From Pseudomonadota bacterium (GTDB lineage Bacteria; Pseudomonadota; Alphaproteobacteria; Micavibrionales; CSBR16-224): DNA of 64,000 bases. The notes beneath the pieces were generated by a model. That model worked only from the letters and a program-made list of their open reading frames with translations, ran no database searches and was not told the origin of the DNA. The translations under genes were made by a program, and so were the position numbers. The stretch covers positions 1,634,735 to 1,698,734 of the forward strand of contig CP053449.1 in the NCBI GenBank assembly GCA_013285465.1, given 5' to 3'. Of this stretch, positions 40,770 through 58,972 are shown piece after piece. Positions within the stretch are counted from its first letter, which is position 1, and each line of letters opens with the position of its first letter.

Positions 40770-40776
40770 CTCTTTC

Positions 40777-40804
40777 ATTTTACGCTCTTCTCCATACAGG
40801 TCAA
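40777..40804 (-). promoter_or_regulatory. Sigma70-like promoter candidate for the TolC/MFP/M50 operon (TTGACC-16 nt-TAAAAT)
   Basis: On the minus strand, TTGACC is at 40804-40799 and TAAAAT at 40782-40777, with a 16-nt spacer. It is 80 nt upstream of the ATG at 40696. Confidence 0.4.
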
Positions 40805-40916
40805 TATGTTAGTAATTTTTTAACAATTTATGTGATAAAGGCGACTTAAAAAAAGCCGCCTTTCACGCCCCTGTCCGGCAGAGGCATCGTTAATACGCTG
40901 AAAAACCTTCTTCGCC

Positions 40917-41165: not shown

Positions 41166-41245
41166 AGTGTTTTCCTTTCATTTGCGGTGATTCCAAGGGA
41201 GTTTAAAGCCTGCGGCCTCAAAAATAAAGCATTATGACAGAAAAA

Positions 41246-42502
41246 TCACGCCATCATCCCAAAACGGCGGATAGCTTCATAACCCAGCCCCAGACCGACA
41301 CTAGACAGCTTATTCTCCTCAGATATCTCCGCCTGTGGAAATTTGGCTGCGATTGTTTCTTTCAACAATGGTACCTCTGTCGTACCGCCCGTCAAAATAA
41401 TCAATTCCACCGCCTCTTCTGCGATTTGCGCCTGCCGCAAACAATCATCAATATCGGCAATAATCGCACGCACATGTTTCTCCACCGCATCATTAAAAAC
41501 GCTGCGCGCCACAGTAACGGAAAACGCCTCCTCTACAAAATCAAGCGATGCCGTCACTTGCAAATGCTCCGTCAGTCCGATTTTACAATCTTCAACCGCC
41601 GCCAAGAGCTGATGGCCTTTTTCCTCCTCCAGCAATTTGATATAGCGTGAAAACTTTTCCGGCGCATGTGACTGCGGCAAAATATCCCGCATCTGCTTGT
41701 GCATTTTCGGCGTGTATAAAAAGTTGATTTTCGACCATTCGGACATGTCATGGAACGGCACAGCCGGAAGCGGTAGGTTTTTCTCGCCGTAATCCGTGCC
41801 GTATCCGAAATCGGGCATGAAGGCACGCAGACTTAAATCCTTGTCAAAATCATTTCCGCCAATACGGATACCGGAATTGCCGAGAATGTCATCCGTGCGG
41901 TCAGCTTTATCCATCACATCCTGCGCCAGACGAATGACGGTAAAATCCGATGTACCGCCTCCGATATCGGCAACAAGTGCCAGTTTTTCAGATGGAAGAT
42001 TTCTTTCATGCGCAAAAGCGGCCGCGATCGGTTCATACTGAAAAGCGACATGTTTAAACCCGACGGCTTGCGCGATATTCTGCAATTCGTCCTGCGCACG
42101 ACTATCGGTTTTGCTGTCATTATCGGCGAAATGCACGGGTCTGCCCATAACGACATTTATCATTTCAACGCCGCTGTGCTGCTCTGCCACAGCTTTCATA
42201 TGGCCGATAAAATCACCCAGAACATCTTCAAATTTCTTCAGCTTTCCATTTACCACCGTGCCGTCATTCATCAGGCTGGTACCCAGAATACGTTTCAGAC
42301 TGCGCATGAAACGCCCCTCTTCCCCCTCCATAAAAAGCTGCATCGCCTGTTTGCCGAAACAGGGCTGCGGCGCAACGGCAGAATAGAAAACGGCACTCGG
42401 AATCGTTATGCCGTCCTCTTCCAGAGGCACAAGCGTCACGGCGCGTTCCCTGCAAAGGGCAAGCGTTGAATTCGAGGTTCCAAAATCAAGACCGCAATTC
42501 AT
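41246..42502 (-). CDS. Hsp70-family ATPase (YegD-like)
   Basis: GLDFGTSNS phosphate-1 motif, DIGGGTSDFT phosphate-2 and LTGGTTEVP. About 420 aa with no substrate-binding domain. Confidence 0.88.
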   Translation of the reverse strand: MNCGLDFGTSNSTLALCRERAVTLVPLEEDGITIPSAVFYSAVAPQPCFGKQAMQLFMEGEEGRFMRSLKRILGTSLMNDGTVVNGKLKKFEDVLGDFIGHMKAVAEQHSGVEMINVVMGRPVHFADNDSKTDSRAQDELQNIAQAVGFKHVAFQYEPIAAAFAHERNLPSEKLALVADIGGGTSDFTVIRLAQDVMDKADRTDDILGNSGIRIGGNDFDKDLSLRAFMPDFGYGTDYGEKNLPLPAVPFHDMSEWSKINFLYTPKMHKQMRDILPQSHAPEKFSRYIKLLEEEKGHQLLAAVEDCKIGLTEHLQVTASLDFVEEAFSVTVARSVFNDAVEKHVRAIIADIDDCLRQAQIAEEAVELIILTGGTTEVPLLKETIAAKFPQAEISEENKLSSVGLGLGYEAIRRFGMMA

Positions 42503-42663: not shown

Positions 42664-43311
42664 ATGGTTTCAAATATGCCGGATTTTACAGTTTTCGACA
42701 AAACAATACTGGTCACAATTGCCAGCGCAGCGGCAGCATTCCTTATTGTTCTGGGTGTCGGGCTGACGCTTGTCAAAAACAAAAGCCGGACAGAACTGAA
42801 GCGCCAAAAAACACGCGGCGGCAAGGAATGGCAAAATGCCCGCCAAAAAATACGCTTTTTCCGTTTCAAAAATGCGCGTGAAATACTGATTATTTTTTCA
42901 CTGCTGGCACTGATCGCTCTGGGGAAATTTCTGGAACCGTCCCCGCCTGCCGCAGATACACACAGCGCCAAAGACGGCAAAAGCAGCAGCACAATTTTCT
43001 GCCATTCCCCCTACATTATTGACGGCGATACTTTCGACTGTATCGGCACGCGCATACGTCTGACGGGGATTGATGCGCCGGAAATGCCCGACCATTGCAG
43101 AGCCGGGCGACGCTGTACCAAAGGCGATCCCTTTGCCGCAAAAGATCATCTGAAGACTTTAACAACGGGCTGGGTAAAATGCCACGCCATCGAAATTGAC
43201 CATTACGGGCGCACCATTGCCCGTTGCACTGTAAAGGATATCGATCTTTCCTGCGCGATGATCGCCTCCGGCCATGCCGTCCGGCGTTACAGCCGTATTT
43301 CCTGCCCTTAA
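42664..43311 (+). CDS. Thermonuclease (SNase-like) family protein with an N-terminal membrane anchor
   Basis: TM ILVTIASAAAAFLIVLGVGL. Nuclease motifs IIDGDTFDC...IRLTGIDAPE and DHYGRTIARC. Confidence 0.8.
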   Translation: MVSNMPDFTVFDKTILVTIASAAAAFLIVLGVGLTLVKNKSRTELKRQKTRGGKEWQNARQKIRFFRFKNAREILIIFSLLALIALGKFLEPSPPAADTHSAKDGKSSSTIFCHSPYIIDGDTFDCIGTRIRLTGIDAPEMPDHCRAGRRCTKGDPFAAKDHLKTLTTGWVKCHAIEIDHYGRTIARCTVKDIDLSCAMIASGHAVRRYSRISCP

Positions 43312-43320: not shown

Positions 43321-46300
43321 TCAGAAACTGCCGACAATATTGAAGAAAACACCGCGGCTTTGATAATCAAGATTGGTCAGATCATCCGAGAAATCCGTGA
43401 AGTTATAACCGACGCCCAGTTTGACATTCTCGTTAAAATGCCGGTACACGCCGATCAAGCCGCCGGCTTTTGCGTCACCGGCATCTTTGGCATCAAGATA
43501 GCGCAGCTCACCCGTCACATCCCATTCATGCACCACATGCCAGTCAGCACGTGCCACGCCCAGCCATGCCGTGCTACTGAACCACGGCGTACCTGCCGCC
43601 GTCGTATCACGCAATTCGCCGACACGGTATCCCAACTTGCCGCCCACCGATAGTTTAGGAAACAGATCATAAATAAAATCGCCCGAGAAGACATGACTGC
43701 GCTGTTCATAGCCGTTTGCAGCACCTGTGCCAGAGACTTGCCCCGGGCTACCCTCATCAGACAAATAAGTGTAACGCACCAGCGCATTCAATTTGTCGTT
43801 CAAAACGGGGCGGTAGCCAAAGCCCATATTCAGCTCGGTAAAATTCGCATCCGTCGTGCTACCTGTACCCGCATCGCTGAGAGCAACATCCAGTCCGCCC
43901 GAGAAACGCCAATCTTCCGAAACCTGATAGGCCAGCGTATTTTTCATCAGCCATGATGTTCTGTCACCTGTCGTATTGCCGCTTTCTTCGCGCCATTCCA
44001 GCGTACCGCCATAGCGGACTTTATCGCGGGTATAACCTGCGGAGACGGAGGCCGCAATCCGGTCAAGATCACCGGTTGCCGGGTCAGAGGTTTTTCCGGT
44101 TTCAAATTTACCGCCCCATGTCCAGCGGTCGCTGGCAGCAAGGTCCAGCCCCATCGCATGCATAATGCCGGACTGCCCCTGCTGCGCATGCAGATAACGC
44201 TGCTCGGAAAATACCGACAAATTATCAGTATAGCGGGAGCGCGTTCCCGCCACGAGCGTATTGCTGCGCCCGTTATTGCCCGTATCAGTGCGCCCTGTGT
44301 CAGACAGATAATTGATATAATGGCTGGTACGGTCGTCCACACGGTAATCCAGCCCCGCCTTGCCGCCGAGACCGTCATCGCCGCCTGTCAGTTCGCCGCT
44401 GATTTCCAGCCGGTCATTCAGGCGGAATAAACCGCCGCCGCCGTAACGGTCATTGCCCAGCCGCGTCGTATCACGGTGCAGCGTTGTTTGCGCAAGGCCG
44501 TAAATTTCGTAACGCCCCGGCGTGCCCTCTTCCGTCAACGGCGCATAACCAAGTTTTACAAGCGCGTCCGTCCGCTGCCCTGTTTGCGCCAGCACCGTAC
44601 TACCGCCTGCCGCCAGCGCCGTATCACGGTCATCATGCCGCGCGCCGAATGTCAGCGTTGTTTCCTGTGACAATGCGTAATCCACACCCGCCTCGACCGC
44701 TTTATAACTGCCGGTCGTTTTGCCTTCCTTGAAATCGGCCTTCGCTGTGAAATCCAGCCTGTCCGACACCGGCAGACGGAGCATACCGCCTGATTGTTCT
44801 ACGCCTTCATTTGTCAGCTGCCCCGGCGCGGAAAAGCCGTTTTGCCTGTTCAGCCAATATCCCGATAATGTCCCGTTTTGTCTGCCATCCGTCAGTTCGG
44901 CAAAATCAGCGGCAATCTCTATACGGTGCGCATCCGCATCAATACCCGCCGTTCCCGTTTGCGGGATAGCGCCAAAATTGAAACCGCCATTCTGTGAGGA
45001 CATGCCGCCTGTTCCCGGACCGTCAGAACGTGCGGTTTCCAGTTTTAGATATGTGCCGGGTTTGTAACGCAGCGTCATATCCGCCCCCAAAAGGCTTTGC
45101 TGCCTGCCTGTACCTTTTTGTTCATAACCTGATGCGCCAACCCGCAGATGATCATTCACCCAATGGCTGACGCGCCCGCCTTTTGTCATGTTATCAACGG
45201 AAGAAACGCCGGGGGTAAATTCATAGCCCGCGACAAGATAAACCGGATTGCCGCCTTGTGTGCCGTTCAGGATGAAGGCGGAAATACCCGCCGTTGATTC
45301 CAGCGGCGTGCTTAAAATAACGCGCCCTTGAATATAATTGATGTCGTAATCCTGTCCGTAAATCAGTGTTTTGGATTCCAGTACGATACCTGAATCCTGA
45401 TCGCGCACCTCAACACGCAGCCTTTCCGAGCCGATGACCAAATCCTGATTGCGCAAATAGTAAAGTGACCCGCCCGTGCCGCGGAATTCTTCAATCGCAT
45501 CTAATGTGCCGGGATCGGCCGCGAACAGATCAAGCTCCGTACGTTTTTCACCGAAAGCCGTTGTTGTCATACTGCCGTGATGCGCTTCGGCACCGTAAAG
45601 CGTACGGCTGAAATTCATCAGATCGGTTCCCGTCAATCGGGTCTGAAAACTGCCCCATAGAACTTTCGTATCGTTTTTTTCAACCTTCACATAGAATTTT
45701 CCCAAAGTCGGCGCATCTTCGATCAGCGTGGAATCATCGCCGTAAACCGGATAATAAGCACTAGGGTCAAGGCGGCGCAGCAGGCTGCGGGCATCTTTTT
45801 CATCGAATTGCGAAAAAATATCCTCAAGCGGTTTTTCCTGTGTATCGGCGCTGGAAGTCACTTGCCAGCCATTCTTCAATTTGCCTTTGGTGTAATAGGC
45901 CAAACGCCCTTCGGCATATAGTTTTTCATTATAGCGATCGCTGTTTTTTCCGGTCACCAGCGCCGCCGGGCCTTTCACATCATTCAGCCCCATCGTCAGA
46001 TCCGCAATCCCGACAGTGAACCATTCCTGCGACGGAATATTGATATGACGATTGAATTCCGCACGGCCGCCATCCGTTTTTTCAAGCACCACATCAACAT
46101 CGTGATCGCCTGCGGGCAGTATCTGCTCCACGGCAAATTTACCCTGCGTATCCACCGGAACCGGCTGCCCCATTACCAGAACCGTTTCCCCTGCGGCGAT
46201 ACCATCACCATTCACCGTCACCGTGCCGCCATGAACCGGAATATTGCGCAAACCGATATGGTTCTCCCCATATCCCGTCAACATCTCGCGTGTTTTGCCT

Positions 46301-47472
46301 TCATCGGGCTGTGCGCCACGCCGCGCATCCAGAATATCCATCACTTTCGGCGTCGTTTCGTCGAAACGACCTTTCCCGTCATAGACGCGCAGCAAATATT
46401 TTACCGCCGTCAGAGTATTATCCTGCGGCACTGCCCATGTAATTTCGCCAAAAGAACCATCAAAAGGCAGAACAGCCAGCGGCGGTTTATCTGTTGAGAC
46501 ACCTTCCTTGAAAATCCGCAATTCCGCTTTTTTGATAAAGGCGCGGTAATTTGTATAGGGAAGGAAAGAAACCGTCTCCCCTCTGACCGCGCCCTCCGGC
46601 CAGACCGTCACATTCAGAACAGGCTCAATCTCCAGCCCGTCAAAACGCAGCTGAATATCCGCTTTTTCAAGTGCGATATCCGTGCAACGCGTTACATCCG
46701 CGCTATTGGGAACATCTTCTCCCGGAGCCGTTTCGCCATCAATGGAAATACGGAACGGCAAATCACTATCCTGCGCAGGCGCATCTTTGCACACCCCCGC
46801 CTGCGGCACAGCATAAGCGGCTGTTTTATACCAGACGCGTAGCTCCGCGCGACGATCATCAGCCATGCAATCCTGATAATCCAGCTGCGCCTGTTCCGGC
46901 GTTTCCGCACCAGCCATATCCAGCTGACATTCCGTCGCCGCCGCACTGTCTCCCATCCCTGTGATGCGCACAGGCACATTCTGCCATGCCTCCAATTCAC
47001 GCAGATAGGCGGCAACTTCTTTCGCACGGGCAACGGAGAGAGCATGGTTATCAGCATAATATTTGCGCGACTCTTTTGATAAAGGCTGTTTATCGGTATA
47101 GCCGACAATCTCGGCGCGCTCGATCTCTCGTCCCTGCAGCTCTGTAGCAAGATGTGTCAGCGAGGCTTTTCCCGCATCCGATAATTGATGCCGCCCCGAT
47201 GCGAAATACGGCACATCAGCATTCCCCAATTTGGAAATCTCAGCCTTTTTGCGCCACAATACCAACACTTCATCCGCAGGACGGCGGTATTCCGTATCTG
47301 GTGGCACAGCGCGTTTCACAACCCGCGAGACCATCGCCGTTTTTCCCGGCTGATCCAGCGGCGGGCAAGTGTCGCAATCCTCCCCGATCGCCGGCGAATT
47401 CCCTGCCAGAAATGCGACGGCAACACCGGTCAGTAAAAGATATTTCGATGCGGCGCGGGAGAATATCATCAT
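43321..47472 (-). CDS. Very large outer-membrane protein: signal peptide, N-proximal OmpA-like domain and a C-terminal beta-barrel
   Basis: Signal peptide (LLLTGVAVAFLAGNSPA). OmpA-like segment FASGRHQLSDAGKASL...IVGYTDKQP...NHALSVARAKEVAAYL. Long alternating-hydrophobic beta-strand region ending in the OMP signature ...FFNIVGSF. The ATG overlaps the upstream stop as ATGA. Confidence 0.8.
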   Translation of the reverse strand: MMIFSRAASKYLLLTGVAVAFLAGNSPAIGEDCDTCPPLDQPGKTAMVSRVVKRAVPPDTEYRRPADEVLVLWRKKAEISKLGNADVPYFASGRHQLSDAGKASLTHLATELQGREIERAEIVGYTDKQPLSKESRKYYADNHALSVARAKEVAAYLRELEAWQNVPVRITGMGDSAAATECQLDMAGAETPEQAQLDYQDCMADDRRAELRVWYKTAAYAVPQAGVCKDAPAQDSDLPFRISIDGETAPGEDVPNSADVTRCTDIALEKADIQLRFDGLEIEPVLNVTVWPEGAVRGETVSFLPYTNYRAFIKKAELRIFKEGVSTDKPPLAVLPFDGSFGEITWAVPQDNTLTAVKYLLRVYDGKGRFDETTPKVMDILDARRGAQPDEGKTREMLTGYGENHIGLRNIPVHGGTVTVNGDGIAAGETVLVMGQPVPVDTQGKFAVEQILPAGDHDVDVVLEKTDGGRAEFNRHINIPSQEWFTVGIADLTMGLNDVKGPAALVTGKNSDRYNEKLYAEGRLAYYTKGKLKNGWQVTSSADTQEKPLEDIFSQFDEKDARSLLRRLDPSAYYPVYGDDSTLIEDAPTLGKFYVKVEKNDTKVLWGSFQTRLTGTDLMNFSRTLYGAEAHHGSMTTTAFGEKRTELDLFAADPGTLDAIEEFRGTGGSLYYLRNQDLVIGSERLRVEVRDQDSGIVLESKTLIYGQDYDINYIQGRVILSTPLESTAGISAFILNGTQGGNPVYLVAGYEFTPGVSSVDNMTKGGRVSHWVNDHLRVGASGYEQKGTGRQQSLLGADMTLRYKPGTYLKLETARSDGPGTGGMSSQNGGFNFGAIPQTGTAGIDADAHRIEIAADFAELTDGRQNGTLSGYWLNRQNGFSAPGQLTNEGVEQSGGMLRLPVSDRLDFTAKADFKEGKTTGSYKAVEAGVDYALSQETTLTFGARHDDRDTALAAGGSTVLAQTGQRTDALVKLGYAPLTEEGTPGRYEIYGLAQTTLHRDTTRLGNDRYGGGGLFRLNDRLEISGELTGGDDGLGGKAGLDYRVDDRTSHYINYLSDTGRTDTGNNGRSNTLVAGTRSRYTDNLSVFSEQRYLHAQQGQSGIMHAMGLDLAASDRWTWGGKFETGKTSDPATGDLDRIAASVSAGYTRDKVRYGGTLEWREESGNTTGDRTSWLMKNTLAYQVSEDWRFSGGLDVALSDAGTGSTTDANFTELNMGFGYRPVLNDKLNALVRYTYLSDEGSPGQVSGTGAANGYEQRSHVFSGDFIYDLFPKLSVGGKLGYRVGELRDTTAAGTPWFSSTAWLGVARADWHVVHEWDVTGELRYLDAKDAGDAKAGGLIGVYRHFNENVKLGVGYNFTDFSDDLTNLDYQSRGVFFNIVGSF

Positions 47473-50400
47473 TTCTCTCCCGCCGAGGAGGTCACAAATT
47501 CCTCCTCCACTTGCAATTCATGGCAACAGCTGTGTTTCTTCCACAGTTTTTTCACCACGTCCGTCACGGCTTGCAAACGCTTGCGCGCCAGCTTTTCATC
47601 TTCCTGTTTTACGGTATAGGCCAGACGCAAGACAATCGGGCGGTCACGCATTTGTTCCAGAACTTGTTCCAACTGGCTGTGGAAATCCGGCTTTAAGTCG
47701 GTTTCGCCTGACAGGAAGGCATCATCGCGCATATCGACCCGCACGACCTTATGAATGGCGGCACCGAAATTGATCTTTGCCATCTTTCCGCGCGTCGCGC
47801 GGATAATGCGCGGGTTTTCCGTCGTGACGCGATAGCCTGTCGGCAGCGTGCGTTCATCCAGCTTCATAATGAAATTACTGCCGCGCTCTTCATCAGGAAT
47901 AGCAGCACAGGCAACATGGAAACGCCCTTGCGCATCCGTTGTCACCAACAAACCGTTCACAGTTGCCAGACGCACGGCGGGAATGCCCGGCTCACCCTCA
48001 TCCTGATAGCCGTTGGTGTTTTTATCATCAAAGACCTTTCCGATCAGATCGGCGCAATCAAAAACCGGATCAGGGACAACACGCACCGTTGCTGTTGCCA
48101 CATTGGAAGCCGCATTGGCAAAACCCGGCGGCACCAGATTATTGATCGCCTCGACACGGTTCACATACTCACCCGGCTGCACACCCGCGCCGACGACAAG
48201 GATCATTTTAAATGTCCGCGTCGCCCCCGCCGCAATGGTCAAATTCGGCCAGGTCAGCGTTCTGTTCACAACGGTCGGCTCAGTCGCCACCCCATCCAGT
48301 GTCGCGCTTCCGGCTTTGTATTTAAAGCCCGGCGGAATGGTGTCGATAATGTTGATATTGGTCAAATTCGCCGCCAGAGTATTGCGCGCCGTAATCGTAT
48401 AAGGCACAAGCTGGCCGATGCTGACATTGGTCATCGGCGTCGTTTTGGTCAAAACGATGGCACTGTCCAGCACCGGATCCAGCGGAATATGGTTGTTGAC
48501 CAGATTGGCCGATGTCGCCGGATCAATGACAAAACTGAAATAATGCTGGGTCGTCGCCTGATCGGCAGGCGTAAAGGCAGCGGTTGTCGCCGGACAGGCC
48601 GCAGGGTTATGCGCGGGTGCAGCAAGCACCGGTGCCAGGGCACTCGTCTGCACTTGCGCAGGATCGGGCGGCGGCGGCGAGACTGTCAGCGTATTCGCAC
48701 ACACCGGAATAATCGCCGATGGCACCGGAATGTAAGCGCCGGGATAGCTTGAAATCGAAAGTGTATAGGTTCCCGCAGGCGCGGCAGGCGTTAACAGGAA
48801 CTGGTACAAACCATCTGCGGCGGTCGTTACTGTTGCCGTGCCGCCGACAAGATGCACTGCCGGATTAAATCCGACAGGCCCCGCGATTGTCACATCTGCC
48901 CCCGCAACCGGTAAACGGGTAATGGAATCATAGACCACACCCGCCGGATCCAGCGGCAGACTTTGCTCGATAATATTATCACCTGCCAGCAATGACAGAT
49001 TGCTTAATGTACCATCGCCACTGGACAGATCCGCACCCGCCGGATTTCCGGCATTGGTGCCGCCATTGCTGGTTGATGCCCCGGTATCACGCGTTCCGTT
49101 CGCGGGCACAATCCCCTGCTCATTCGGCAGGGCGCGTCCGTAAATCAAGCCTGTTGTCGGTTCACGGAACTGGATTTTATATCCTGCCCCCGGTGCGATA
49201 CCGTTAAAGGCATAAGTGCCATCCGCCGCCGTTGTCGCTGTACTGACGATAATATTGTTGAACAGCAATTCAACCGTCCATCCCTGCACAAGCGGCTCAC
49301 CTCCGTCAATCTGGCGGTCATGGTCATAATCGCGCCAAATCGTGCCGCTGATATCGGCCACATTGGCAATCGCCACCGTATCGGTATCGGTATTATTGCC
49401 GTCAAAACCGGGGGGCTCACCGCCGCCGGAGACAACTGCCGTATTTACCAGCAACTGCCCCGCCGTACCGCCCGCCACAGCAACACGCAAAGAAATCGGG
49501 TTACCGTTACCGCCTGCCGCAATCACGTCTGTGCTGGTACAAGTGACGGTCGTATCGCCGATTGCTCCGACACAAGCCCAGCCTGTTCCCGTCGCCGGTG
49601 CAGCAACTGTCATACCGACCGGCAGCGTATCAACAACAGTGACCGTACCGGAGGTTGCCACCGTTCCGACATTCGACGGTGTGATCGTAAATACACCGGT
49701 CGTCGACCCCTCACCAAAACTGGACGGCGCATGGGTTTTCAGAATTGTCAGATCAGGCGCCGCTCCCGGCACTTCGGCAAAATTATTACCGCCCGATACC
49801 GTATTCGCACCTGTTAAATCAAAACCCGCAATACGGCTGGTTGTTGCCGTCGGGTTGCTGGCAACGCCGCCGGTGCTGCCGGCCGTCACAATCCCGTTGG
49901 TTGTGCCTGTTGCCTGTGCAGGCTGATCCAGCGTATAGGTTCCCGGCGGCAATCCGGTAAAACCGTAATCCCCGTTTGCATCCGTCAGTGTCGTTGCGCT
50001 GACGGGATTGGTGTTGATATCCGTTCCTGTCAGATTGATCGTCTGGTTTGACAACCCATATTCCGTCCCATTCAAAACACCGTCATTATTGTAATCAAGA
50101 AAGACATTCCCCAGCGCGCTGCGTCCATTGATGATCTCCGCAAAATTATTATCGGCGGCTGTCGTGTTCGGCGGCAGGATAATCGTGGCAATCACGCTCG
50201 GCACCGTTGCGGGATTTGTCGGCGTCCCCGCCGTACCGCCATTGGGAACCGCACCTGCTGTCGTAATACCGTTTGATGTCCCCGCAGGCTGGTTCGGCTG
50301 GCGCACCGAATAAGTCGCGGGCTGCAGCCCCGTAAAGTTGTAAGCCCCTGTGGCGTCTGTCGTATCGGTTGTGATGACGGCATTGCCCGCATCCAGTAGC

Positions 50401-53400
50401 TCGATCAACTGTCCGGCAATCCCCGTATCACCACCATTCTGGATGCCGTTGTTATTGGCATCCTGAAAGACCGTTCCCGAAATAGCTGAGAGAACGATTT
50501 CCGCAAAATTATTTCCGGTCGAGCCGCTGACCTCGCCGCCCGCACCGTCATTATTCAGAATGATATTGATGATCTGACTGCTTGTTGCTGTCGGGTTCGA
50601 AGCCGTCCCTGCCGTTCCGGTACTGCCATTGACACTGCCGATCGCCCCTGCCGTTGTCGTGCCGTTACTGGTTCCCGCAGGCTGGGCATTTTGGCAGACG
50701 GAATAAGTGCCGCCCGCAAGGCCGGAGAACAGATAATTCCCCGCCGCATCCGTCAGTTGCGTATCCAGCAATGCGCCGCCGCAGGTTGCGCCGCTGCGTA
50801 GCTCCACCGCTTCGCCGGAAATCACCGCATCAGTGCCTGACTGGAACACACCATCGGGCGCGACATTATTGTCGCGGAACATTTTACCGGAAATAAAGCC
50901 CAGCGTACTGACTGATAAAACCGCATTCGCAGGCTGCTGGTTATTGCCCAGATTGGTCTGCAGACGCCCTGCCGGAATGTTGTTTGTATGATCGCCCGGC
51001 GTGTTTGCCGTGACATCAACGCTGATCGTACAGCCGCCTGCCGGAATAGATGCGCCATTCGCATAGCTGATTGTTGCCGCCCCTGCCGCTGCCGTGACAG
51101 CCCCCGGACAGGTTTTCACAACATTCGGCACAGGTGCGACCAACACCGCTCCCGGAGCCGTTGGCAAATTATCAGTAAAGATTGAGGTCAGAGTCAGCGG
51201 TACCGTATTATCATTACCAAGGAAGATCGTCATGGTCGAGACGCTGCCTTGCGGAATAACTGCCGGATCAAACTGTTTACTGACTGTCGGCGGCGTTGAA
51301 ACCAGAAGCTGTGCACTGGTTGGTTCCTGATTACTGACGCCTTCAAAAGTCGTAACAGCACCTGCCGCCAGTGTATTGGTATAGCTGCCGGAAATATTGC
51401 TGAGGACATTCACGCTCACGGTACAGGAGCCGCTACCCGGAATTGTCGCTCCGCTCAAGCTGATGCTTGTTGCAGAGGCCGGTGCCGTGACCGTGCCGCC
51501 CGCACAGGTGGTCGAAGCTCCCGGTGTTGGCGCAACAACAAGACCTGCCGGGAGGTTATCCGTGAAGGATGCCGCCGTCAGCGCCGCCGCATTCGCATTC
51601 GCCAGATTGATCGTCAGCACTGCAGAAGCACCCGGCGCCCGCGATGCCGTGCCTGTCGTAAATCCGGCAGGATTGCCCGCATCCAGTGTAAAATTGGCAA
51701 TCGCTTTATGGATGACCACCGGCGATTTGGCCCGCAGCGTATCATCGGTCGGGTCGGAGTTTGTTGCGGAGGCACCGCCAACCGTTGCCGAAACAGCCCC
51801 CGCCGGAATGGTGTTGAGAAAGTCGCCTTCCGTCGAGGCAACCACGTCAATTTCCCCGTAACAGGAGGCCGCCGTACCGCCGGACGCCGCCCCCAGATTT
51901 GCACCCGAGATTTGCACCTGCCCCGCCGCCGGAGACGATATCGTGCCGCCCGCACAAGTGGTAACGGGGTTCGGGCTGCTGGGTACCGTCACATTCGCAG
52001 GCAGATTATCCGTAACGGAAATTCCCGAAGCCGGTTGCGCCGTCGCATTGTATAATGTAATCCGCAGGCGCGACCGCTGCCCGACCGAGACCACATTCGG
52101 CGTAAATTGTTTGGTAATGCCGACATTGCTTTGAATCGTCAGACTGGTGGTCGCCTGCCCGCTATTGGTCAACCCTTGATCGGTCTGAATCGCATTGGCG
52201 GGAATAAAGTTTGTAATCCCGCCGACTGTGGTCGAGCTGACATTGACCGCAATCGTACAAGACGCATTTGCCAGCATGCTTGCCCCCGCAAGCGAAAGCG
52301 ATGTCGCACCCGGTATTGCCGTCACCGTACCGCCGGTACAGGTTGTTGCTGCGGCAGGCGTCGGCGCGATAATCATGCCATTCGCCGCCGCGCCCATTGT
52401 ACCGTCTGCGGTAAAGTAATCCGCTAGCGACAGCCCCGTCACATCCAGCGAGCCGTTCGTCACCGTAATCGTCAGACGGCTTATCTGCCCCGGGAAAGTC
52501 AAGGTACTGGGATTGGTCGTTTTCGCAACCGTCAGATTCGTCGGCGGATCAAAGACCAGCGTTCCCGTCACAGCCGTCTGGTTACTCACGCCGCCCGTTG
52601 CCGTCAGATTGCCGATGGGGATCGTGTTGATCCAGTTCGCCGCTCCGGTTGCCACAACATCAAACAGCAGATCACAACTGCCGCCGCCCGCCAAATTCGC
52701 CCCCGTCATCGTCAGGCTGCCGTCACCGGGATTACCCGTAATGACCGGACTGCCCGCACAGGTCGCATAAGCATTGGTCGGATTGGCTAGCACCATTCCC
52801 GCAGGCAGCGGATCCGTGACACTGACATTCGCCAAGGCGACCGCGCCGCTATTCGTCATACGCACCGTGACTGTCGATTTACCGCCGGAGGAAACGCTGG
52901 AAGGGCTGAATGTTTTGACTGCGCCAAGCGCCGAGGTGAAAGTAATATTCGCCGTATTCGAATTCAGCGGCCCGACCCCCGCAGTCGTTCCATCTGCATA
53001 AGTCTGCGTTCCCGCAAGCGTTGCCGTATTGCTGTAAATTCCGGCAGGCGCAATCACATCGACCTGCACCACGCAAGTTCCAGATGCGCCCGTACCGCCG
53101 CTTGCCCGCGCAGGAACCGTTGCACCGTTCATAGAAAATGACGTCGCATTCGGCGTTGCCGTCACCGTACCGCCAGCGCAGGTTGTTGCCGCATTCGCCG
53201 GTGTCGCCACACGCATCTGTCCGCCGCTGCCCGCCAATGGCAGGTTATCACTCAGCGAGACATTATTCATCGGATTTGCCGACAGATTCGACAGGGTGAC
53301 CGTCAAGCGCGTAATGGCACCCTCCGAAAGCGGGCCGGCGGGCGAGAAAGCTTTCACGGCAGACAAGACCGCCGTATTGATTGTTCCTGATACGCTATTG

Positions 53401-55232
53401 GAGGAACCGCCGTTACAGGTCGCCCCCGCATTGTAACAGACTGACCCCGCCGCCAAGGTGTTGGAATAGGATGATCCGTTTGCCGCGCCGGAATCCGTCA
53501 TTGCCCAGAAGGTAACCGTACAGCTGCCCGGCGTATTCACATCCGCCCGCGCCGGAACCGTGCCGATGGTAAAGACCGGTGTTGTCGTTCCGGTCGCCCC
53601 CGTGACCGTCAACCCCACACAACCTGTACCGCCCAATACCGGCGTAAAATTCAAACTGCCGATTGTTCCCGTCAGAAACGTCTGCCCGTTTGTCAGCGTT
53701 TCATTAATATCCAGATTATTCAGCGCCGATGCCAGCCAGTTCTGTACCGTCACCGTATAGCTGACAGGGCTGCCCGGCGCCGCGCTTGACGGTGTGCGGG
53801 ATTTCAGGACACGCAGATCATCCACAACCAGAATGGAGGAAGAAGTATTCTGGCTGACCACACCGGCCGTTGCCGTTGTTACCGCGCCTTGCGCAATACT
53901 GTTCGTATAGGTAATGGGCGTATTCGGATTTTGTACCGTCGCGGTAAAAGGCGCAGTGATGGTACAGCTGCCGCCTGCGGCAATCGTGGTATTTCCCGTT
54001 TGCGTAATACCGGTATTCCCTGCTGTGGCCGCATAAGTTCCGGCAGTCCCCGTCCCCGTACAGGCGACCCCGACCGCGCCGCTGATTTTTAAGCCGAAAC
54101 CGGCATTACCGATCCCGTCAATCGGATCATCGGTAAAACCCGTCACCGTCAATGGCGCGGTTCCCGTATTGGACATGACAATCGAAAAACTGTCATCCTG
54201 CCCGCTGGAAACGGCGCTATGCGCAAAACTTTTACTGACATTCAGCGGCGAACGCGTACGGACGGAAGCGCTGGCATTATTCGGCACGATGCCGACATCA
54301 CTGCTGAAATCCGTTGCGCCAACAATCGTATTGCTCTGAAAGCCTGTATCATAAACACCGTTGGTATGACTGGCCACGACCGCAACAGTGATCGAACAGC
54401 TGGAATTGGCGGCAATGGTACCGCCCGTCGCCGTTACCGATGTCGCCCCTGCCACAGGCGTGAATGTTGCAGGTGTTCCGCCGCCCGTACAGCTGGAATT
54501 ACTGACAACGGGGCTGGCCACTTCGATAATCGGCGTCCCCAAAGACGGGAAATTATCCGTAACGCTGAAATTTGCCAGCGCAACGGGATTGCTGTTGCTG
54601 ACCGTGATTGTCAGCGTGGCGGAACCGCCGCCGAGAACCAGCGTGTTATTACTGAAAGATTTACTTATGACCGGACGCGCAAAGGCCCGCACATTCACGC
54701 TTTGACTGACATTACCGGAATTCGCGACAGCTGCGCCGTCATCTCCCGTGACCGCACCATCGGCAATCGTATAGCTGTAGGTTGCCGCATTCCCTGTCGA
54801 GGTCCCCGCCGTGACGGGAACAATAATCGTACAAGTTCCATCCGTATTATTTGCCCGCGCCGGAATTGTACCGCCACTGAGCGAAATGGCCTGCGTGCCG
54901 TTGACAGCCGTCAATGTCCCCGCCCCCGGATTGACGACAGGAACGGAAGGATCGGTACATGTATAGGTCGCGGCACCGGCAATGCTGAGGCCGTTCGGCA
55001 ATGTGCCGGGCAAGCTGTTACTGAAAGCGACAGCCGTCACCGGCGCAACCGTATTATTATTGGACAGGGTGATTTCAAGTTGTGTGATTTCGCCGGGATA
55101 AATATCTGTCGGCTGCCCTGTGACCAGCGTCACGGAAGCCCCCAATGCTGCATAGGCGGTTCCCGACCACAAAATCCCGCATAACAGAATGATGCAGGCA
55201 AGAAACTTTTTCAATCTACGCTGGACGATCAT
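47469..55232 (-). CDS. Giant (2587 aa) secreted repeat protein with ten Cys-pair Ig-like modules, SdrD-B/Cna-B-like repeats, DUF11-like repeats and a degenerate C-terminal OmpA-like module
   Basis: Signal peptide LACIILLCGILWSGTAYA. Repeats carry ...TLTITVSN...V(S/T)DNLP...TC(A/T)GGT...SCT(I/V).V. SdrD-B-like repeats: G.VF.D.N.NG..D.G..G......L......TTTDA.G.Y.F.GL..G.Y. DUF11-like: LTILKTHAP...VVDTLPVGM...WAC...VTC. Confidence 0.85.
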   Translation of the reverse strand: MIVQRRLKKFLACIILLCGILWSGTAYAALGASVTLVTGQPTDIYPGEITQLEITLSNNNTVAPVTAVAFSNSLPGTLPNGLSIAGAATYTCTDPSVPVVNPGAGTLTAVNGTQAISLSGGTIPARANNTDGTCTIIVPVTAGTSTGNAATYSYTIADGAVTGDDGAAVANSGNVSQSVNVRAFARPVISKSFSNNTLVLGGGSATLTITVSNSNPVALANFSVTDNFPSLGTPIIEVASPVVSNSSCTGGGTPATFTPVAGATSVTATGGTIAANSSCSITVAVVASHTNGVYDTGFQSNTIVGATDFSSDVGIVPNNASASVRTRSPLNVSKSFAHSAVSSGQDDSFSIVMSNTGTAPLTVTGFTDDPIDGIGNAGFGLKISGAVGVACTGTGTAGTYAATAGNTGITQTGNTTIAAGGSCTITAPFTATVQNPNTPITYTNSIAQGAVTTATAGVVSQNTSSSILVVDDLRVLKSRTPSSAAPGSPVSYTVTVQNWLASALNNLDINETLTNGQTFLTGTIGSLNFTPVLGGTGCVGLTVTGATGTTTPVFTIGTVPARADVNTPGSCTVTFWAMTDSGAANGSSYSNTLAAGSVCYNAGATCNGGSSNSVSGTINTAVLSAVKAFSPAGPLSEGAITRLTVTLSNLSANPMNNVSLSDNLPLAGSGGQMRVATPANAATTCAGGTVTATPNATSFSMNGATVPARASGGTGASGTCVVQVDVIAPAGIYSNTATLAGTQTYADGTTAGVGPLNSNTANITFTSALGAVKTFSPSSVSSGGKSTVTVRMTNSGAVALANVSVTDPLPAGMVLANPTNAYATCAGSPVITGNPGDGSLTMTGANLAGGGSCDLLFDVVATGAANWINTIPIGNLTATGGVSNQTAVTGTLVFDPPTNLTVAKTTNPSTLTFPGQISRLTITVTNGSLDVTGLSLADYFTADGTMGAAANGMIIAPTPAAATTCTGGTVTAIPGATSLSLAGASMLANASCTIAVNVSSTTVGGITNFIPANAIQTDQGLTNSGQATTSLTIQSNVGITKQFTPNVVSVGQRSRLRITLYNATAQPASGISVTDNLPANVTVPSSPNPVTTCAGGTISSPAAGQVQISGANLGAASGGTAASCYGEIDVVASTEGDFLNTIPAGAVSATVGGASATNSDPTDDTLRAKSPVVIHKAIANFTLDAGNPAGFTTGTASRAPGASAVLTINLANANAAALTAASFTDNLPAGLVVAPTPGASTTCAGGTVTAPASATSISLSGATIPGSGSCTVSVNVLSNISGSYTNTLAAGAVTTFEGVSNQEPTSAQLLVSTPPTVSKQFDPAVIPQGSVSTMTIFLGNDNTVPLTLTSIFTDNLPTAPGAVLVAPVPNVVKTCPGAVTAAAGAATISYANGASIPAGGCTISVDVTANTPGDHTNNIPAGRLQTNLGNNQQPANAVLSVSTLGFISGKMFRDNNVAPDGVFQSGTDAVISGEAVELRSGATCGGALLDTQLTDAAGNYLFSGLAGGTYSVCQNAQPAGTSNGTTTAGAIGSVNGSTGTAGTASNPTATSSQIINIILNNDGAGGEVSGSTGNNFAEIVLSAISGTVFQDANNNGIQNGGDTGIAGQLIELLDAGNAVITTDTTDATGAYNFTGLQPATYSVRQPNQPAGTSNGITTAGAVPNGGTAGTPTNPATVPSVIATIILPPNTTAADNNFAEIINGRSALGNVFLDYNNDGVLNGTEYGLSNQTINLTGTDINTNPVSATTLTDANGDYGFTGLPPGTYTLDQPAQATGTTNGIVTAGSTGGVASNPTATTSRIAGFDLTGANTVSGGNNFAEVPGAAPDLTILKTHAPSSFGEGSTTGVFTITPSNVGTVATSGTVTVVDTLPVGMTVAAPATGTGWACVGAIGDTTVTCTSTDVIAAGGNGNPISLRVAVAGGTAGQLLVNTAVVSGGGEPPGFDGNNTDTDTVAIANVADISGTIWRDYDHDRQIDGGEPLVQGWTVELLFNNIIVSTATTAADGTYAFNGIAPGAGYKIQFREPTTGLIYGRALPNEQGIVPANGTRDTGASTSNGGTNAGNPAGADLSSGDGTLSNLSLLAGDNIIEQSLPLDPAGVVYDSITRLPVAGADVTIAGPVGFNPAVHLVGGTATVTTAADGLYQFLLTPAAPAGTYTLSISSYPGAYIPVPSAIIPVCANTLTVSPPPPDPAQVQTSALAPVLAAPAHNPAACPATTAAFTPADQATTQHYFSFVIDPATSANLVNNHIPLDPVLDSAIVLTKTTPMTNVSIGQLVPYTITARNTLAANLTNINIIDTIPPGFKYKAGSATLDGVATEPTVVNRTLTWPNLTIAAGATRTFKMILVVGAGVQPGEYVNRVEAINNLVPPGFANAASNVATATVRVVPDPVFDCADLIGKVFDDKNTNGYQDEGEPGIPAVRLATVNGLLVTTDAQGRFHVACAAIPDEERGSNFIMKLDERTLPTGYRVTTENPRIIRATRGKMAKINFGAAIHKVVRVDMRDDAFLSGETDLKPDFHSQLEQVLEQMRDRPIVLRLAYTVKQEDEKLARKRLQAVTDVVKKLWKKHSCCHELQVEEEFVTSSAGEK

Positions 55233-55366: not shown

Positions 55367-58279
55367 TTAGCCGAAGAATCCGGTATAATGGGCGATGGCT
55401 GTTGAAATGCGGCGCGTCACCAGATGCATTTGCTGCATCGGCGCAATGATGCCGGTCTGCAGATTGACGTAACCGTCTTTATCTTTGGCCCGCTTGCGGT
55501 ATTCGGAGGTCTCCCCGAAATCATAATCGCTGCTTTTCATGATTTGCGCGGGAAAGATTTTCTTTAAAACCGCAACGGCGCGATCAATATCCATATGGAA
55601 GATCATTTTCAAAAGCTGCTCACGTGAAATCGCATGATGAGGACCGTAACGCGGAATATGCGTTGCCAACAGAGAGCAATAGGCAATCATCGCAATCCGC
55701 ATGGCGTGCAGACAGGCAATTTCATCCGCACAGGGATGCGGGTCCGTTTGCAAAAAGCGCTCCAGCAATGTGTAATCCCAATACAGCTTGCGGAAAACCT
55801 CCATCATATTGTCGTGATGATCATGTTTTTCCAACTGCGTGGCAACCGCCGCCATGCGGTTGGAAATATCCGCATCCTGCCTGCTTCCGGCACGGGTAAT
55901 CCACAATGTCGGATTCAGGATATTGATATAGGCGCGCATCACATCGGGGTTGGAGCGTTCCGCCCCGCTGCGGATCAGCGATAAAATCGTGCGGAAACGC
56001 GGCGAGCGTTTCTCCGCATCGGCAAAGAAATCAGAATATTCGCGCATCGCACGGCCAATACCGGAAACCGTATTGGCCAGCACGCCCATTTGCGCCAGAA
56101 TGGCATTGGTCGGAATTGCCCTGATTTCATTGACATTGCGCTTATCGGGCAAGGCCGAACTATCCGTGCTTTCCCGTTTAATCGCCCTACTGCCGGAGGG
56201 GTCTGTCAAATTAGTGCCAAAGGCGAACAGTAAATCCGCATATTTCGGGTTCTTGGTATAATCCAGCTGGAACTGTGTTGATTCCGTGAAAAATCCGGTA
56301 ACGGCACTCCGCATCGGCTCCTGATAATAAGGGTCGTCCTCATCCTGCGCCCCGTCCTGATCACCCAGCCAATATGTCAACGCACCTGTCACCATGGCCA
56401 GTGCCGTTTCCGCCGTCATAAAATTGACGTAACCGTCACCGCCCTGATAACTGCTTTCCTGTGTATAGGGAATACCGGCCTTGGCCAAAGCACCCAGCAC
56501 ATAGGGCGGCGCGATATATTCCAGACGTTTTTGGAAGCTTTCGGGATGACCGCCGCGCCCTATGGACTCCCCATGCGTATCAAAAAACAACAGGCCGATA
56601 TTTTTAATTTTCCTGTCTTTGAACATCTGGATAAAGCGTTCTTTCATGCGCTCGATAGATGCCCCCGCGGCAGGCTGGCCGATATAACGCCCCGCATCGG
56701 AGTAACCGGTCTGAATACATAGGCGCTGCCGCTTTTTCAGATAAGAGGTAAAATCCGGGCTATCAAACAACGCGGCCATATAGCGCGTACTGTTCTGCAA
56801 AGCGCGGTCGGTTTCAAACAACGGGCAGATATCCACCATATGATCGACACCGAAATATTTGGCAAAATACAGCGCCGTTAAAATCGTGAACGCACTTTCG
56901 GTTTCCGCGATCAAAAAGCGGATCGGGCTGTCCGTATCAATATATTGCGTGATTTTCTGTATCAGCATGAATTTATATTTTGCCGTCATTTCTTCATCGG
57001 CAATATCGCCGAAATCCGCATTCACAGGCTTGGTCGCTTTAATAAGATCCAGAATTTTTTCGGTATTCTGCCGCCGTGTTGTCGGATGATCCGGATGCGT
57101 ATCAAGCCGGATTTTCTCACTGACCGCATTATGCAGCTGGGTCGCATTCAGGCGGAAATGAACTTCCGCACGGCTTAATCCGTTGCTTTGCATTTGCGTC
57201 AGCAGGACAAGGAGTCGCTTTTGCAGTGCCGTATCTTCCGTTTTGGCGATATTTTTTTCAATTGCGCGGAGAAGCGGCGCAGCAGAGATAAGACGCTTTT
57301 TCGTACTGCCGATCAGCGATTGCGCAATCTGCTGCAATTCTTCGTAATTTTCATCGTCATTGTTATTGTAAGACAGGAAGTCCTTGCGGTGCTCCTCCAT
57401 AAGAACAAGCGTCGTCTGAATATCCGCCAGCGGCTTTGCAAGCATTCCGCACTCTTCCGGATAATCCGCCAGCAGTGCGGTAAAGGCCTCCTGATATGCG
57501 GATAATTGCCGGATTTGCAGCAGGATACGTTTTTCCAAAGTCGTCGCCCATGAAATATCGCGCCGTCCGTCGATATCAAAACCGACCCATGTCGCAACGG
57601 AAAACAAACGCGGGCGCAGCTTCTGCCAATCCTGCGGATAGCATTCCTCCGCAACATCGAAAAGCCGTGACAGCATAAATTCCAGCGCTTTGTGCAAATT
57701 ATCAATGGCCGCCAGTGCCAGATCATTTTCCATTGTCAAATCGGGTGGCATAAAAGTAACAGCCGCCGCCTTGTGCAATGCTTTTTTGGTCGCGCCGTTA
57801 TCGGCTCCGGCAAGCTGCCCCGTATAGCGCGCCAGTTCCTGCGACAATGCAGGCGGCATTGAGAAAGTCGGATGCGCGGTAAAAACAAAACCGTAGAGAA
57901 AATCCTCCGTCTTTTTGCGGAAAGCTGAAAATCCGCACGGCGTTTTACCGTCTTTGCCGCGCGCCAGCGCATAGAAAATTTTATCGATCGCCGCCGTGTT
58001 TTCGGCCTGATTGCAACAGCCAAGATATTGCGCAGCGTTTTCCGCACGGTGTTCCAGCCCCTTGCGGTATAATTTTTCTACGGCATCCGACACAGCCGTG
58101 ACAGATAATGCGCCTTTCTCAAAACCGCGGACAATATCCAGCGCCAAACGCAAGACCGGACTGACAAAGGGATCGCCTTGATAATTACCGTGATGCATCC
58201 GGTAACGCTCCAGCACATGCTGCAAGAAATCGGGACTGTCTTTTAAGGTGAGGCTGTTAACGGGGGTTATTTTGGGCAA
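55367..58279 (-). CDS. ppc: Phosphoenolpyruvate carboxylase (divergent form)
   Basis: FTAHPTF (canonical TAHPTE), GYSDAGRYIG (canonical GYSDS.KD.G), HGESIGRGGHP (canonical GRGGS.GRGG.P). The C-terminus ends TGFFG. 970 aa. Confidence 0.78.
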   Translation of the reverse strand: MPKITPVNSLTLKDSPDFLQHVLERYRMHHGNYQGDPFVSPVLRLALDIVRGFEKGALSVTAVSDAVEKLYRKGLEHRAENAAQYLGCCNQAENTAAIDKIFYALARGKDGKTPCGFSAFRKKTEDFLYGFVFTAHPTFSMPPALSQELARYTGQLAGADNGATKKALHKAAAVTFMPPDLTMENDLALAAIDNLHKALEFMLSRLFDVAEECYPQDWQKLRPRLFSVATWVGFDIDGRRDISWATTLEKRILLQIRQLSAYQEAFTALLADYPEECGMLAKPLADIQTTLVLMEEHRKDFLSYNNNDDENYEELQQIAQSLIGSTKKRLISAAPLLRAIEKNIAKTEDTALQKRLLVLLTQMQSNGLSRAEVHFRLNATQLHNAVSEKIRLDTHPDHPTTRRQNTEKILDLIKATKPVNADFGDIADEEMTAKYKFMLIQKITQYIDTDSPIRFLIAETESAFTILTALYFAKYFGVDHMVDICPLFETDRALQNSTRYMAALFDSPDFTSYLKKRQRLCIQTGYSDAGRYIGQPAAGASIERMKERFIQMFKDRKIKNIGLLFFDTHGESIGRGGHPESFQKRLEYIAPPYVLGALAKAGIPYTQESSYQGGDGYVNFMTAETALAMVTGALTYWLGDQDGAQDEDDPYYQEPMRSAVTGFFTESTQFQLDYTKNPKYADLLFAFGTNLTDPSGSRAIKRESTDSSALPDKRNVNEIRAIPTNAILAQMGVLANTVSGIGRAMREYSDFFADAEKRSPRFRTILSLIRSGAERSNPDVMRAYINILNPTLWITRAGSRQDADISNRMAAVATQLEKHDHHDNMMEVFRKLYWDYTLLERFLQTDPHPCADEIACLHAMRIAMIAYCSLLATHIPRYGPHHAISREQLLKMIFHMDIDRAVAVLKKIFPAQIMKSSDYDFGETSEYRKRAKDKDGYVNLQTGIIAPMQQMHLVTRRISTAIAHYTGFFG

Positions 58280-58957: not shown

Positions 58958-58972
58958 AGGCTACTCTCACTT

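Follow-up and report, generated by a model that had tools for sequence, protein, structure and literature searches.

The 64,000-nucleotide window analysed here, a stretch of contig CP053449.1 from an alphaproteobacterial genome assembly (GCA_013285465.1), contains on its minus strand a pair of adjacent genes that encode a giant fibre protein of 2587 amino acids (aa) and a putative outer-membrane partner of 1383 aa. Together, the two genes constitute a candidate surface display module, which recurs as a pair, and as single-chain fusions, in many Gram-negative bacteria. The features of the module, with the evidence on which each is based, are as follows (positions are those of the window):

47469–55232, minus strand: fibre (“passenger”) gene, 2587 aa (open reading frame (ORF) list and translation; Pfam matches to DUF7933, nine times, SdrD_B, five times, and DUF11, five times; NCBIfam TIGR01451).
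55149–55232, minus strand: Sec-type signal peptide of the fibre protein, aa 1–28, ending in ...TAYA before an A (sequence and hydropathy heuristic).
50898–55145, minus strand: about ten DUF7933 domains (CnaA-like, predicted isopeptide), aa ~30–1445 (Pfam; Lys, Asp and Asn residues; Cys pairs).
48459–50885, minus strand: SdrD_B (CnaB-like) and DUF11 domains and unassigned stalk, aa ~1450–2258 (Pfam; PDB matches to SdrD and UafA B domains).
48087–48458, minus strand: last DUF11/CLIPPER domain, aa 2259–2382 (best Pfam DUF11 stretch; TIGR01451 at aa 2263–2315).
47751–48071, minus strand: terminal SdrD_B-like beta-sandwich, invariant in the family, with a conserved Cys pair, aa ~2388–2494 (76 of 76 loci; alignment; AlphaFold2; Foldseek matches to SdrD B domains).
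47472–47750, minus strand: beta-alpha-beta-alpha-beta tail, aa 2495–2587, a possible truncated OmpA-like fold without the peptidoglycan-binding loop (alignment; AlphaFold2; hhalign 59%).
47469–47472, minus strand: ATGA stop/start overlap, translational coupling (sequence; ATGA or GTGA at 57 of 76 homologous junctions).
43321–47472, minus strand: outer-membrane partner gene, 1383 aa (ORF list and translation; family conserved over its full length, 40–60% identity).
47389–47472, minus strand: Sec-type signal peptide of the partner, aa 1–28 (sequence and hydropathy heuristic).
46927–47208, minus strand: OmpA/MotB-type peptidoglycan-binding domain, aa 89–182, with a TD...N..LS.ARA motif (Pfam, NCBIfam and family profile; accessory, 0–3 copies in the family).
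46078–46761, minus strand: core of two beta-sandwich domains, aa ~238–465, starting from an invariant PFRISIDG (conservation; AlphaFold2 strands at fragment residues 44–235).
43324–46065, minus strand: very large beta-barrel region, aa ~470–1383, with ~34–46 predicted strands (AlphaFold2; conservation; near-threshold OMP_b-brl match).
43324–43341, minus strand: C-terminal outer-membrane protein (OMP) signature ...NIVGSF with a terminal aromatic residue (sequence; family consensus NLxGKF).

The two reading frames meet in the letters GAG AAA TGA TGA TAT TC, where the TGA of the fibre gene (47471–47469) overlaps the ATG of the partner gene (47472–47470). The junction sequence bears out the ATGA overlap at 47469–47472 reported in the initial annotation of this DNA. 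A second ATG follows directly, and the partner start codon is therefore ambiguous at 47467–47472 (ATGATG): the first ATG results in the ATGA overlap, while the second results in TGATG with a one-nucleotide overlap, and the public gene call of a 98%-identical homologue (P0001) starts at the second (1382 aa). Judging from these letters, the reading frames of fibre and partner are coupled whichever ATG is used. Both N-termini contain a basic n-region, a hydrophobic core and an AxA-like end (MIVQRRLKKFLACIILLCGILWSGTAYA followed by A in the fibre protein, and MMIFSRAASKYLLLTGVAVAFLAGNSPA followed by I in the partner). The Sec signal peptides that had been assigned to both proteins were confirmed in a reading of the sequence combined with a hydropathy heuristic, which are the basis of all signal peptide calls in this work; by the heuristic, 34 of 44 complete homologous giant proteins are also signal-peptide-like.

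Pfam searches with the fibre protein revealed matches to DUF7933 (nine stretches, 440.9 bits, E 3e-134), SdrD_B (five stretches, 181.7 bits) and DUF11 (five stretches, 82.9 bits). Tandem DUF7933, DUF11/CLIPPER and SdrD_B domains above Pfam cutoffs are the hallmark by which the protein was classed as an isopeptide-type fibrillar adhesin stalk, and its only sequence relatives in the PDB are B domains of the staphylococcal proteins SdrD and UafA. Of the families suggested earlier for hidden Markov model searches, DUF11, TIGR01451 and SdrD_B were found in the fibre and OmpA in the partner. Thr, Ala, Gly and Asn are abundant in the fibre protein, and Lys is scarce. In most DUF7933 repeats, a single Lys is placed at the beginning, an Asp follows at +34/35 within TDNLP, and an Asn comes further on; one Cys pair is present in every repeat. 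In the isopeptide survey from which the DUF7933 family originates (PMC12617251), DUF7933 is a predicted isopeptide domain with a Lys-Asp-Asn triad and, often, a disulfide; in their residues, the repeats of the fibre match this prediction. The fibre is a stalk of ~18 immunoglobulin (Ig)-like domains (CnaA-like DUF7933 and DUF11, and CnaB-like SdrD_B); because most of these carry the triad and the Cys pair, they are probably locked by isopeptide and disulfide bonds. The first 211 aa of the fibre matched DUF7933 only, and no adhesive tip domain was found in the window fibre protein, in four split relatives, or in two fused relatives.

The last ~200 aa are the most conserved part of the fibre, with 47–72% identity across phyla. 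An AlphaFold2 model of this C-terminal module (predicted local distance difference test score, pLDDT, 86.6) consists of an SdrD_B-type sandwich followed by a beta-alpha-beta-alpha-beta tail (pLDDT of the tail ~85–95). A Foldseek search with the model, whose result is dominated by the sandwich, returned SdrD B domains. The tail had no sequence match in Pfam or the PDB. When it was aligned to the OmpA profile of the partner with hhalign, a weak similarity was observed (probability 59%, E 9e-5, 57 columns), with a 14-residue gap exactly at the position expected for the peptidoglycan-binding GHTD...N loop, and the predicted fold of the tail is compatible with an OmpA-like domain. A degenerate OmpA-like fold is, therefore, plausible but weakly supported: of the earlier description of the fibre end as a degenerate OmpA-like non-repeat segment (~47472–47765), the segment proved to be real, while its likeness to OmpA is weak. 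We propose that the tail serves as a docking or retention element. A vicinal Cys-Cys is located in the last strand region of the tail (aa 2569–2570, window 47520–47525) and is found as CC[YH] in most, though not all, homologues. An intermolecular disulfide formed through this pair was considered and set aside, since the pair lacks universal conservation.

The partner contains a Pfam PF00691 (OmpA) domain at aa 89–182 (E 4e-10, 40.3 bits versus a cutoff of 27.2), whose motif reads TD...N.ALSVARA. The family profile of the partner, searched against PDB sequences, matched nothing but OmpA-type domains, namely the peptidoglycan-binding domains of PomB, MotB, TssL and Pal (E 5e-13). The OmpA-like segment that had been placed near the partner N-terminus, at ~46903–47190, thus corresponds to a Pfam domain at nucleotides 46927–47208. 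From aa 238 to its end, the partner family is conserved over the full length at 40–60% identity, and a weak Glucodextran_B match (Pfam) falls in the beta-sandwich core. An AlphaFold2 model of aa 230–1383, obtained with a 60-sequence alignment (pLDDT 72.7; predicted template-modelling score 0.58), contains two beta-sandwich domains, followed by ~34–46 long strands with short turns that run to the terminal ...GSF, and a low-confidence insert. The strand count that had been proposed as a check was carried out in this way; both the ~34–46 strand elements (based on DSSP) and the closure of the barrel are estimates. The canonical OMP C-terminus noted earlier (NIVGSF) is there, but the strand region before it, ~900 aa, is longer than the several hundred residues claimed. 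The motifs with the highest conservation in the family, YYPVYGDDS, FRGTGGSLYYL and GQDYxINYxQGR, are located in the insert (aa ~550–760, window 45190–45820), which is modelled with the lowest confidence. It may be a plug or a substrate-contact domain set between strands of the barrel.

Searches for a known family of the barrel in Pfam (E <= 5, including sub-fragments), NCBIfam, phmmer, and profile hmmsearch against PDB sequences revealed the OmpA domain only. In a permissive Pfam search, a generic OMP_b-brl match near threshold was obtained in the barrel region. A Foldseek search of the barrel model against the PDB returned generic large barrels (TonB-dependent receptors, MtrB, SprA, SlpA, LptD and FimD), with query-normalised template-modelling (TM) scores of 0.25 or less. 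Thus, membership of the barrel in a known transporter family, which would have undermined the notion of a dedicated pair, is not indicated by Pfam, NCBIfam, PDB profiles or Foldseek.

A pattern scan of one genome per species identified at least 571 confirmed stretches related to the barrel. Pairing, neighbour and junction counts were made with the best 80 of these loci, 76 of which hold upstream DNA. The 80 loci belong to Alpha-, Beta-, Gamma- and Deltaproteobacteria, Nitrospirae, Gemmatimonadales, Elusimicrobia, Bdellovibrionota and Acidobacteria; cultured carriers of the module include Polaromonas, Methylobacillus, Janthinobacterium, Sphingomonas, Microbulbifer, Azoarcus and Deferrisoma. In all 76 loci with upstream DNA, the barrel gene was immediately preceded by a sequence homologous to the last 207 aa of the fibre (47–72% identity), and the junction was ATGA in 51 and GTGA in six. 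In the reverse direction, barrel sequence came after all three tail-bearing genes located on long contigs, among them a probably decayed copy in Chitiniphilus. When the ORFs of all 80 loci were clustered all against all, no third conserved gene emerged. Co-occurrence across genomes, which the initial annotation had named as a test, thus holds in both directions, and the claim of a dedicated passenger and barrel pair is supported by this adjacency, by a barrel that lies outside known families, and by natural fusions (see below). By these counts, we conclude that the pair is more than a chance adjacency. In Chitiniphilus shinanonensis (KB895352.1, L083:60–2296), the end of the fibre tail is followed by an uncalled stretch in which only the N-terminal ~530 aa of a barrel homologue are encoded (36% identity); judged by its sequence, this is probably a decayed copy of the module.

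The passengers of the split systems vary in length from 1030 to >3276 aa and contain varied mixes of DUF11, DUF7933, SdrD_B and SpaA_3 domains, while the C-terminal ~200 aa are constant. Such variation combined with a constant end would be expected if the passenger is a cargo that is targeted or anchored by that end. It also bears on the view that the giant protein never leaves the periplasm and forms, with the OmpA-barrel protein, an envelope scaffold or a staple of the outer membrane. Both proteins carry Sec signals only, with no direct sign of surface exposure, the conserved module and the OmpA domains would be periplasmic, and the oxidising periplasm would suit the disulfides. However, a stalk of ~18 Ig-like domains far exceeds the width of the periplasm, fast passenger diversification on a constant base is typical of exposed proteins, DUF11, SdrD_B and CnaB-type isopeptide domains occur in surface fibrillar adhesins and pilins (PMC12617251), and a mere staple needs no barrel of more than 30 strands. 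We therefore consider a purely periplasmic scaffold improbable.

The OmpA domain of the partner is accessory. It is absent in 18 of the 72 loci in which both genes were scored (carriers without it include Sphingomonas, Hyphomicrobiaceae, Caulobacterales, Gemmatimonadales and Elusimicrobia), while two copies are present in L022 and L072, and three in L056, L057, L064, L065, L067, L069 and L075, which belong to Microbulbifer, Thiohalomonas, Cellvibrionaceae, Chromatiales and one Nitrospirae metagenome-assembled genome. Since the number of OmpA domains in split systems varies from zero to three, the core of the system consists of the sandwich domains and the barrel.

Single-chain relatives of the pair were also found. 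A HMMER search of 1.84 billion cluster representatives gave 3473 barrel relatives, 1013 of them at E <= 1e-30. Among the best 147 distant relatives, 26 are single chains of 1949–6889 aa with a C-terminal barrel, and one fused relative is a RefSeq protein of Deferrisoma. The order of domains in the fused chains is a signal peptide, a variable passenger, SdrD_B, the tail (in most), zero to three OmpA domains, the beta-sandwich core, and the barrel. The signal peptide is N-terminal and no internal one is present. Frameshifts or gene-calling artefacts were rejected as the source of the fusions: the junctions are without the signal peptide and N-terminus of the partner, and the linkers differ by lineage. 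On this comparison of sequences, we conclude that the fusions are genuine and that the two proteins of the window work together as a unit. In two of the fused chains (P0256 and P0271), long Asp-rich arrays of the calcium-binding type (DxDxDGxxD) are located after an N-terminal domain unmatched in Pfam and before a DUF11/SdrD_B stalk; passengers are thus not limited to Ig-like domains.

In several fusions, the tail directly precedes the OmpA domains. As these bind peptidoglycan and are periplasmic, the conserved module adjacent to them would be placed on the periplasmic side, an arrangement that fits the picture, drawn in the initial annotation, of a fibre whose base is held in the periplasm. 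Three fusions (P0271, P0365 and P0380) have lost the tail, as expected if in the split form the tail docks non-covalently, a function that would be redundant with a covalent link.

The fusions also help to evaluate the view that the barrel is an anchor only, i.e., a tether between outer membrane and peptidoglycan with a docking site, which holds a fibre exported by another route (type II or BAM-assisted). The partner has the parts of a tether (OmpA and a big barrel), as do SlpA and OmpM among fold matches, there is no energy source or chaperone in the module, and Ig-like domains that are folded and cross-linked are typical of the cargo of type II or type IX secretion, not of type V. Yet in the fused relatives one covalent chain runs from the passenger through periplasmic OmpA domains to the barrel; an independent route cannot deliver a passenger tethered in cis, so that such a chain has to cross the membrane as part of its own assembly. 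The OmpA domain is, in addition, dispensable in 18 of 72 loci, so tethering is not the core function. An anchor without a role in export thus appears unlikely.

Comparison with domain families of known secretion systems yielded no membership in any of them. The 12-strand beta-domain of classical (type Va) autotransporters (PF03797) was unmatched in both proteins in Pfam and NCBIfam, as were the ShlB, Bac_surface_Ag and POTRA domains of two-partner secretion (type Vb) in the 1383-aa partner; the TPS (Haemagg_act) domain of type Vb was not found on the fibre N-terminus, and the conserved element of the fibre is C-terminal. IAT_beta of inverse autotransporters (type Ve) was unmatched in Pfam, and in the fused relatives the passenger precedes the barrel. 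For type I RTX adhesins, there was no HemolysinCabind match, a Sec-type N-terminus is present, and the TolC/HlyD genes of the window are not conserved with the pair beyond close relatives. For chaperone-usher systems, no PF00577/PapC match in Pfam and no chaperone or pilin genes nearby were found, and the similarity of the barrel model to FimD was low (query- and target-normalised TM of 0.22 and 0.36, respectively). These Pfam and NCBIfam scans, which found no TPS, POTRA or RTX, uphold the earlier statement that the pair does not match classical two-partner secretion or type I adhesins. The parallel statement about autotransporters holds for family membership, but the fused relatives exhibit the exact domain order of an autotransporter.

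Type IX secretion requires separate consideration. If the C-terminal sandwich and tail were a cleaved signal to which the giant barrel responds, the barrel would pass folded domains and the fibre would be freed or re-attached, for instance as an S-layer-like coat or a matrix fibre. A Sec signal, a giant adhesin that ends in a conserved C-terminal beta-sandwich, and a barrel whose size class is that of the 36-strand SprA are all in line with such a system, and the disulfides of the stalk suggest folding before export. Nevertheless, the models of type IX cargo C-terminal domains, Por_Secre_tail (TIGR04183) and type B (TIGR04131), were unmatched in the fibre and in its last 98 aa, there was no SprA family match, the TM scores to SprA chains in Foldseek were 0.22–0.23, and neither Por/Gld-type neighbours nor PorV, sortase or motor genes are conserved nearby. 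Moreover, the fused forms would need proteolysis for release, and the position of the tail beside OmpA domains suggests that it stays in the periplasm permanently. A type-IX-like route is thus considered improbable.

We favour a reading (with a probability of roughly 0.55) in which the pair is an autotransporter-like display module, with the stalk threaded through the giant barrel and the conserved C-terminal module remaining periplasmic. The location at the surface, the passage through the lumen, the docked tail and the source of energy are all inferred. According to the proposed mechanism, both proteins would reach the periplasm by Sec, with coupled translation providing 1:1 amounts, and BAM would assemble the giant barrel. 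The stalk would then cross the barrel lumen and fold outside, where isopeptide and disulfide bonds would lock the domains, and this folding and cross-linking would render export irreversible. The C-terminal sandwich and tail would stay below the membrane, docked to the beta-sandwich core of the partner, and OmpA domains, where present, would tie the base of the assembly to peptidoglycan.

Two further observations are in favour of the display module. A Cys pair in each repeat, together with the Lys/Asp/Asn triads, is extracytoplasmic chemistry, and the barrel region, with its long strands, short turns and aromatic end, finds its best fold matches in giant barrels of the translocon, sheath or tether type (MtrB, SprA, SlpA, LptD and FimD). 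Several points weigh on the other side. The barrel model is of moderate confidence and does not fix the number of strands, the choice between single and multiple barrels, or the size of the lumen, and its Foldseek matches were rejected as evidence of homology to any translocon (TM <= 0.25, root-mean-square deviation >20 Å). No energy source or chaperone is encoded near the pair, and a passenger of >2500 aa, N-terminal in the fibre, would have to find its way into the barrel. Docking of the tail is a purely inferential step; the tail is kept even where the partner has no OmpA domain, and its own likeness to OmpA is weak. The locus is present in DNA runs from bioreactor, marine and other metagenomes, and three metatranscriptome runs of the same study as the metagenome runs gave no contigs on it, a result that is uninformative.

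More tentatively, and at somewhat less than even odds, the display module may represent an unnamed, distinct outer-membrane display pathway, in effect a new secretion type, in which a barrel of more than 30 strands exports a Sec-delivered, isopeptide-locked fibre and permanently holds it through its C-terminal module. The barrel of such a pathway would be unrelated to Omp85, autotransporter, usher and SprA translocators, and the system occurs in split and fused forms across many Gram-negative phyla.

The module appears to be self-contained at its locus. A gene for a 215-aa protein with a staphylococcal-nuclease-like domain (window 42664–43311, plus strand) is convergent with the barrel gene just downstream and marks the 3' boundary of the module, and a phosphoenolpyruvate (PEP)-carboxylase-like gene is located 134 nucleotides upstream of the fibre gene on the same strand; the pair therefore stands alone. 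The upstream genes (window 55367–61967, minus strand) encode a 970-aa protein with a partial PEP-carboxylase match and DUF4019, adenylate/guanylate-cyclase-domain and DUF350 proteins, none of which is kept beside the module in other loci. Further downstream (window 30682–42502, minus strand) lies a second putative surface-protein export cluster, which is kept in close relatives only, and not with the fibre/barrel pair. It comprises the following genes:

41246–42502, minus strand: Hsp70/MreB-like protein.
39179–40717, minus strand: TolC-like outer-membrane efflux protein (OEP).
37710–39155 and 36380–37720, minus strand: two HlyD-like proteins.
34250–36376, minus strand: M50-peptidase/HlyD fusion.
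30682–34152, minus strand: 1156-aa cadherin/LamG/Big_9 protein.

A wider operon was rejected, since the downstream TolC/HlyD/M50/Hsp70-like and upstream PEP-carboxylase-like genes accompany the pair in close relatives only. The GC content of the fibre gene (window 48000–54000) is 0.57–0.58 versus 0.46–0.51 in surrounding genes, which could be due to its Thr/Ala/Gly-rich composition or to horizontal acquisition. No regulatory RNA was found upstream of the module (the sole match was sub-threshold and attributable to chance), and promoter and terminator scans at the locus showed no enrichment over shuffled sequences.

No description of the pair was found in the searchable literature on DUF7933, TIGR01451, DUF11 with OmpA, giant barrels or isopeptide autotransporters. 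The partner appears in annotation pipelines as “OmpA family protein”, or even as “flagellar motor protein MotB”, and current annotations of the partner thus hide the system. How Sec-dependent giant adhesins with Ig-like, isopeptide-type domains are delivered to the Gram-negative cell surface is an open question: Gram-negative fibrillar adhesins with OmpA-like ends have been listed without an explanation of their export route or passage through the outer membrane (PMC12617251), and for one Sec-type giant adhesin the export route was openly left unresolved (PMC12153261). For one large class of adhesins, the module suggests a specific answer that can be tested, namely a giant barrel dedicated to the passenger. 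With two genes or only one, the module is simple, and it is also widespread; its presence in cultured strains makes it genetically testable. Should it have more than 36 strands, the barrel would rank with the largest single-chain barrels known. Self-contained display of very long, covalently stabilised fibres would also be of interest for surface display and biomaterials.

With type Va and Vb systems, the module shares Sec dependence, a passenger located N-terminal of an outer-membrane barrel, the existence of one-chain and two-gene forms, and a self-contained organisation without an ATPase. It differs from type V in that the recognition module is at the passenger C-terminus, the barrel is ~900 aa rather than 250–550 aa, and the passenger is composed of Ig-like isopeptide-type domains instead of a beta-helix. 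Type Ve proteins (intimin, invasin) likewise display an Ig-like array from a barrel with a periplasmic peptidoglycan-binding domain, but there a 12-strand IAT_beta barrel comes first, the passenger is C-terminal, and peptidoglycan is bound by LysM rather than OmpA. Like the module, type IX systems (SprA with SprB or RemA) combine a Sec signal with giant adhesins made of repeats, whose C-terminal beta-sandwich is conserved, and with a barrel of the 36-strand SprA size class; they differ by their PorV/PorLMKN-type neighbours, which are absent here, and by their occurrence in Bacteroidota, while the module is mainly found in Proteobacteria.

The proposed end state, a stalk that passes through an outer-membrane channel with its terminal domain in the periplasm, is the same as that of type I adhesins with a retention module (LapA, MpIBP and SiiE). 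Those proteins, however, lack a Sec signal, are secreted by means of a C-terminal RTX signal through a TolC-like trimer with an ABC transporter, and carry the retention module at the N-terminus, whereas the module described here has the opposite polarity, no RTX, and a predicted monomeric giant barrel as the channel. Gram-negative CLIPPER/DUF11 fibrillar adhesins with a C-terminal OmpA-like anchor, such as Acinetobacter silvestris B9T28_05395 (PMC12617251), resemble the fibre in their signal peptide, DUF11-type isopeptide stalk and OmpA-like C-terminus; here, the C-terminus appears to be a truncated OmpA-like fold, and the intact OmpA domain, where present, resides on a separate, obligatory barrel partner.

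Finally, very large single-chain barrels, some of them with peptidoglycan-binding N-terminal domains, are represented by SlpA and OmpM, which differ from the partner by their SLH domains and by having no passenger partner, and by a predicted superfamily of 38- and 40-strand outer-membrane beta-barrels (families 002/003; Solan et al., PNAS 2021, PMC8346858), for which the main text gives no function or partner. The strand estimate obtained here (~34–46) is compatible with the 38/40 range of these families, and the barrel of the fibre partner may belong to this superfamily.

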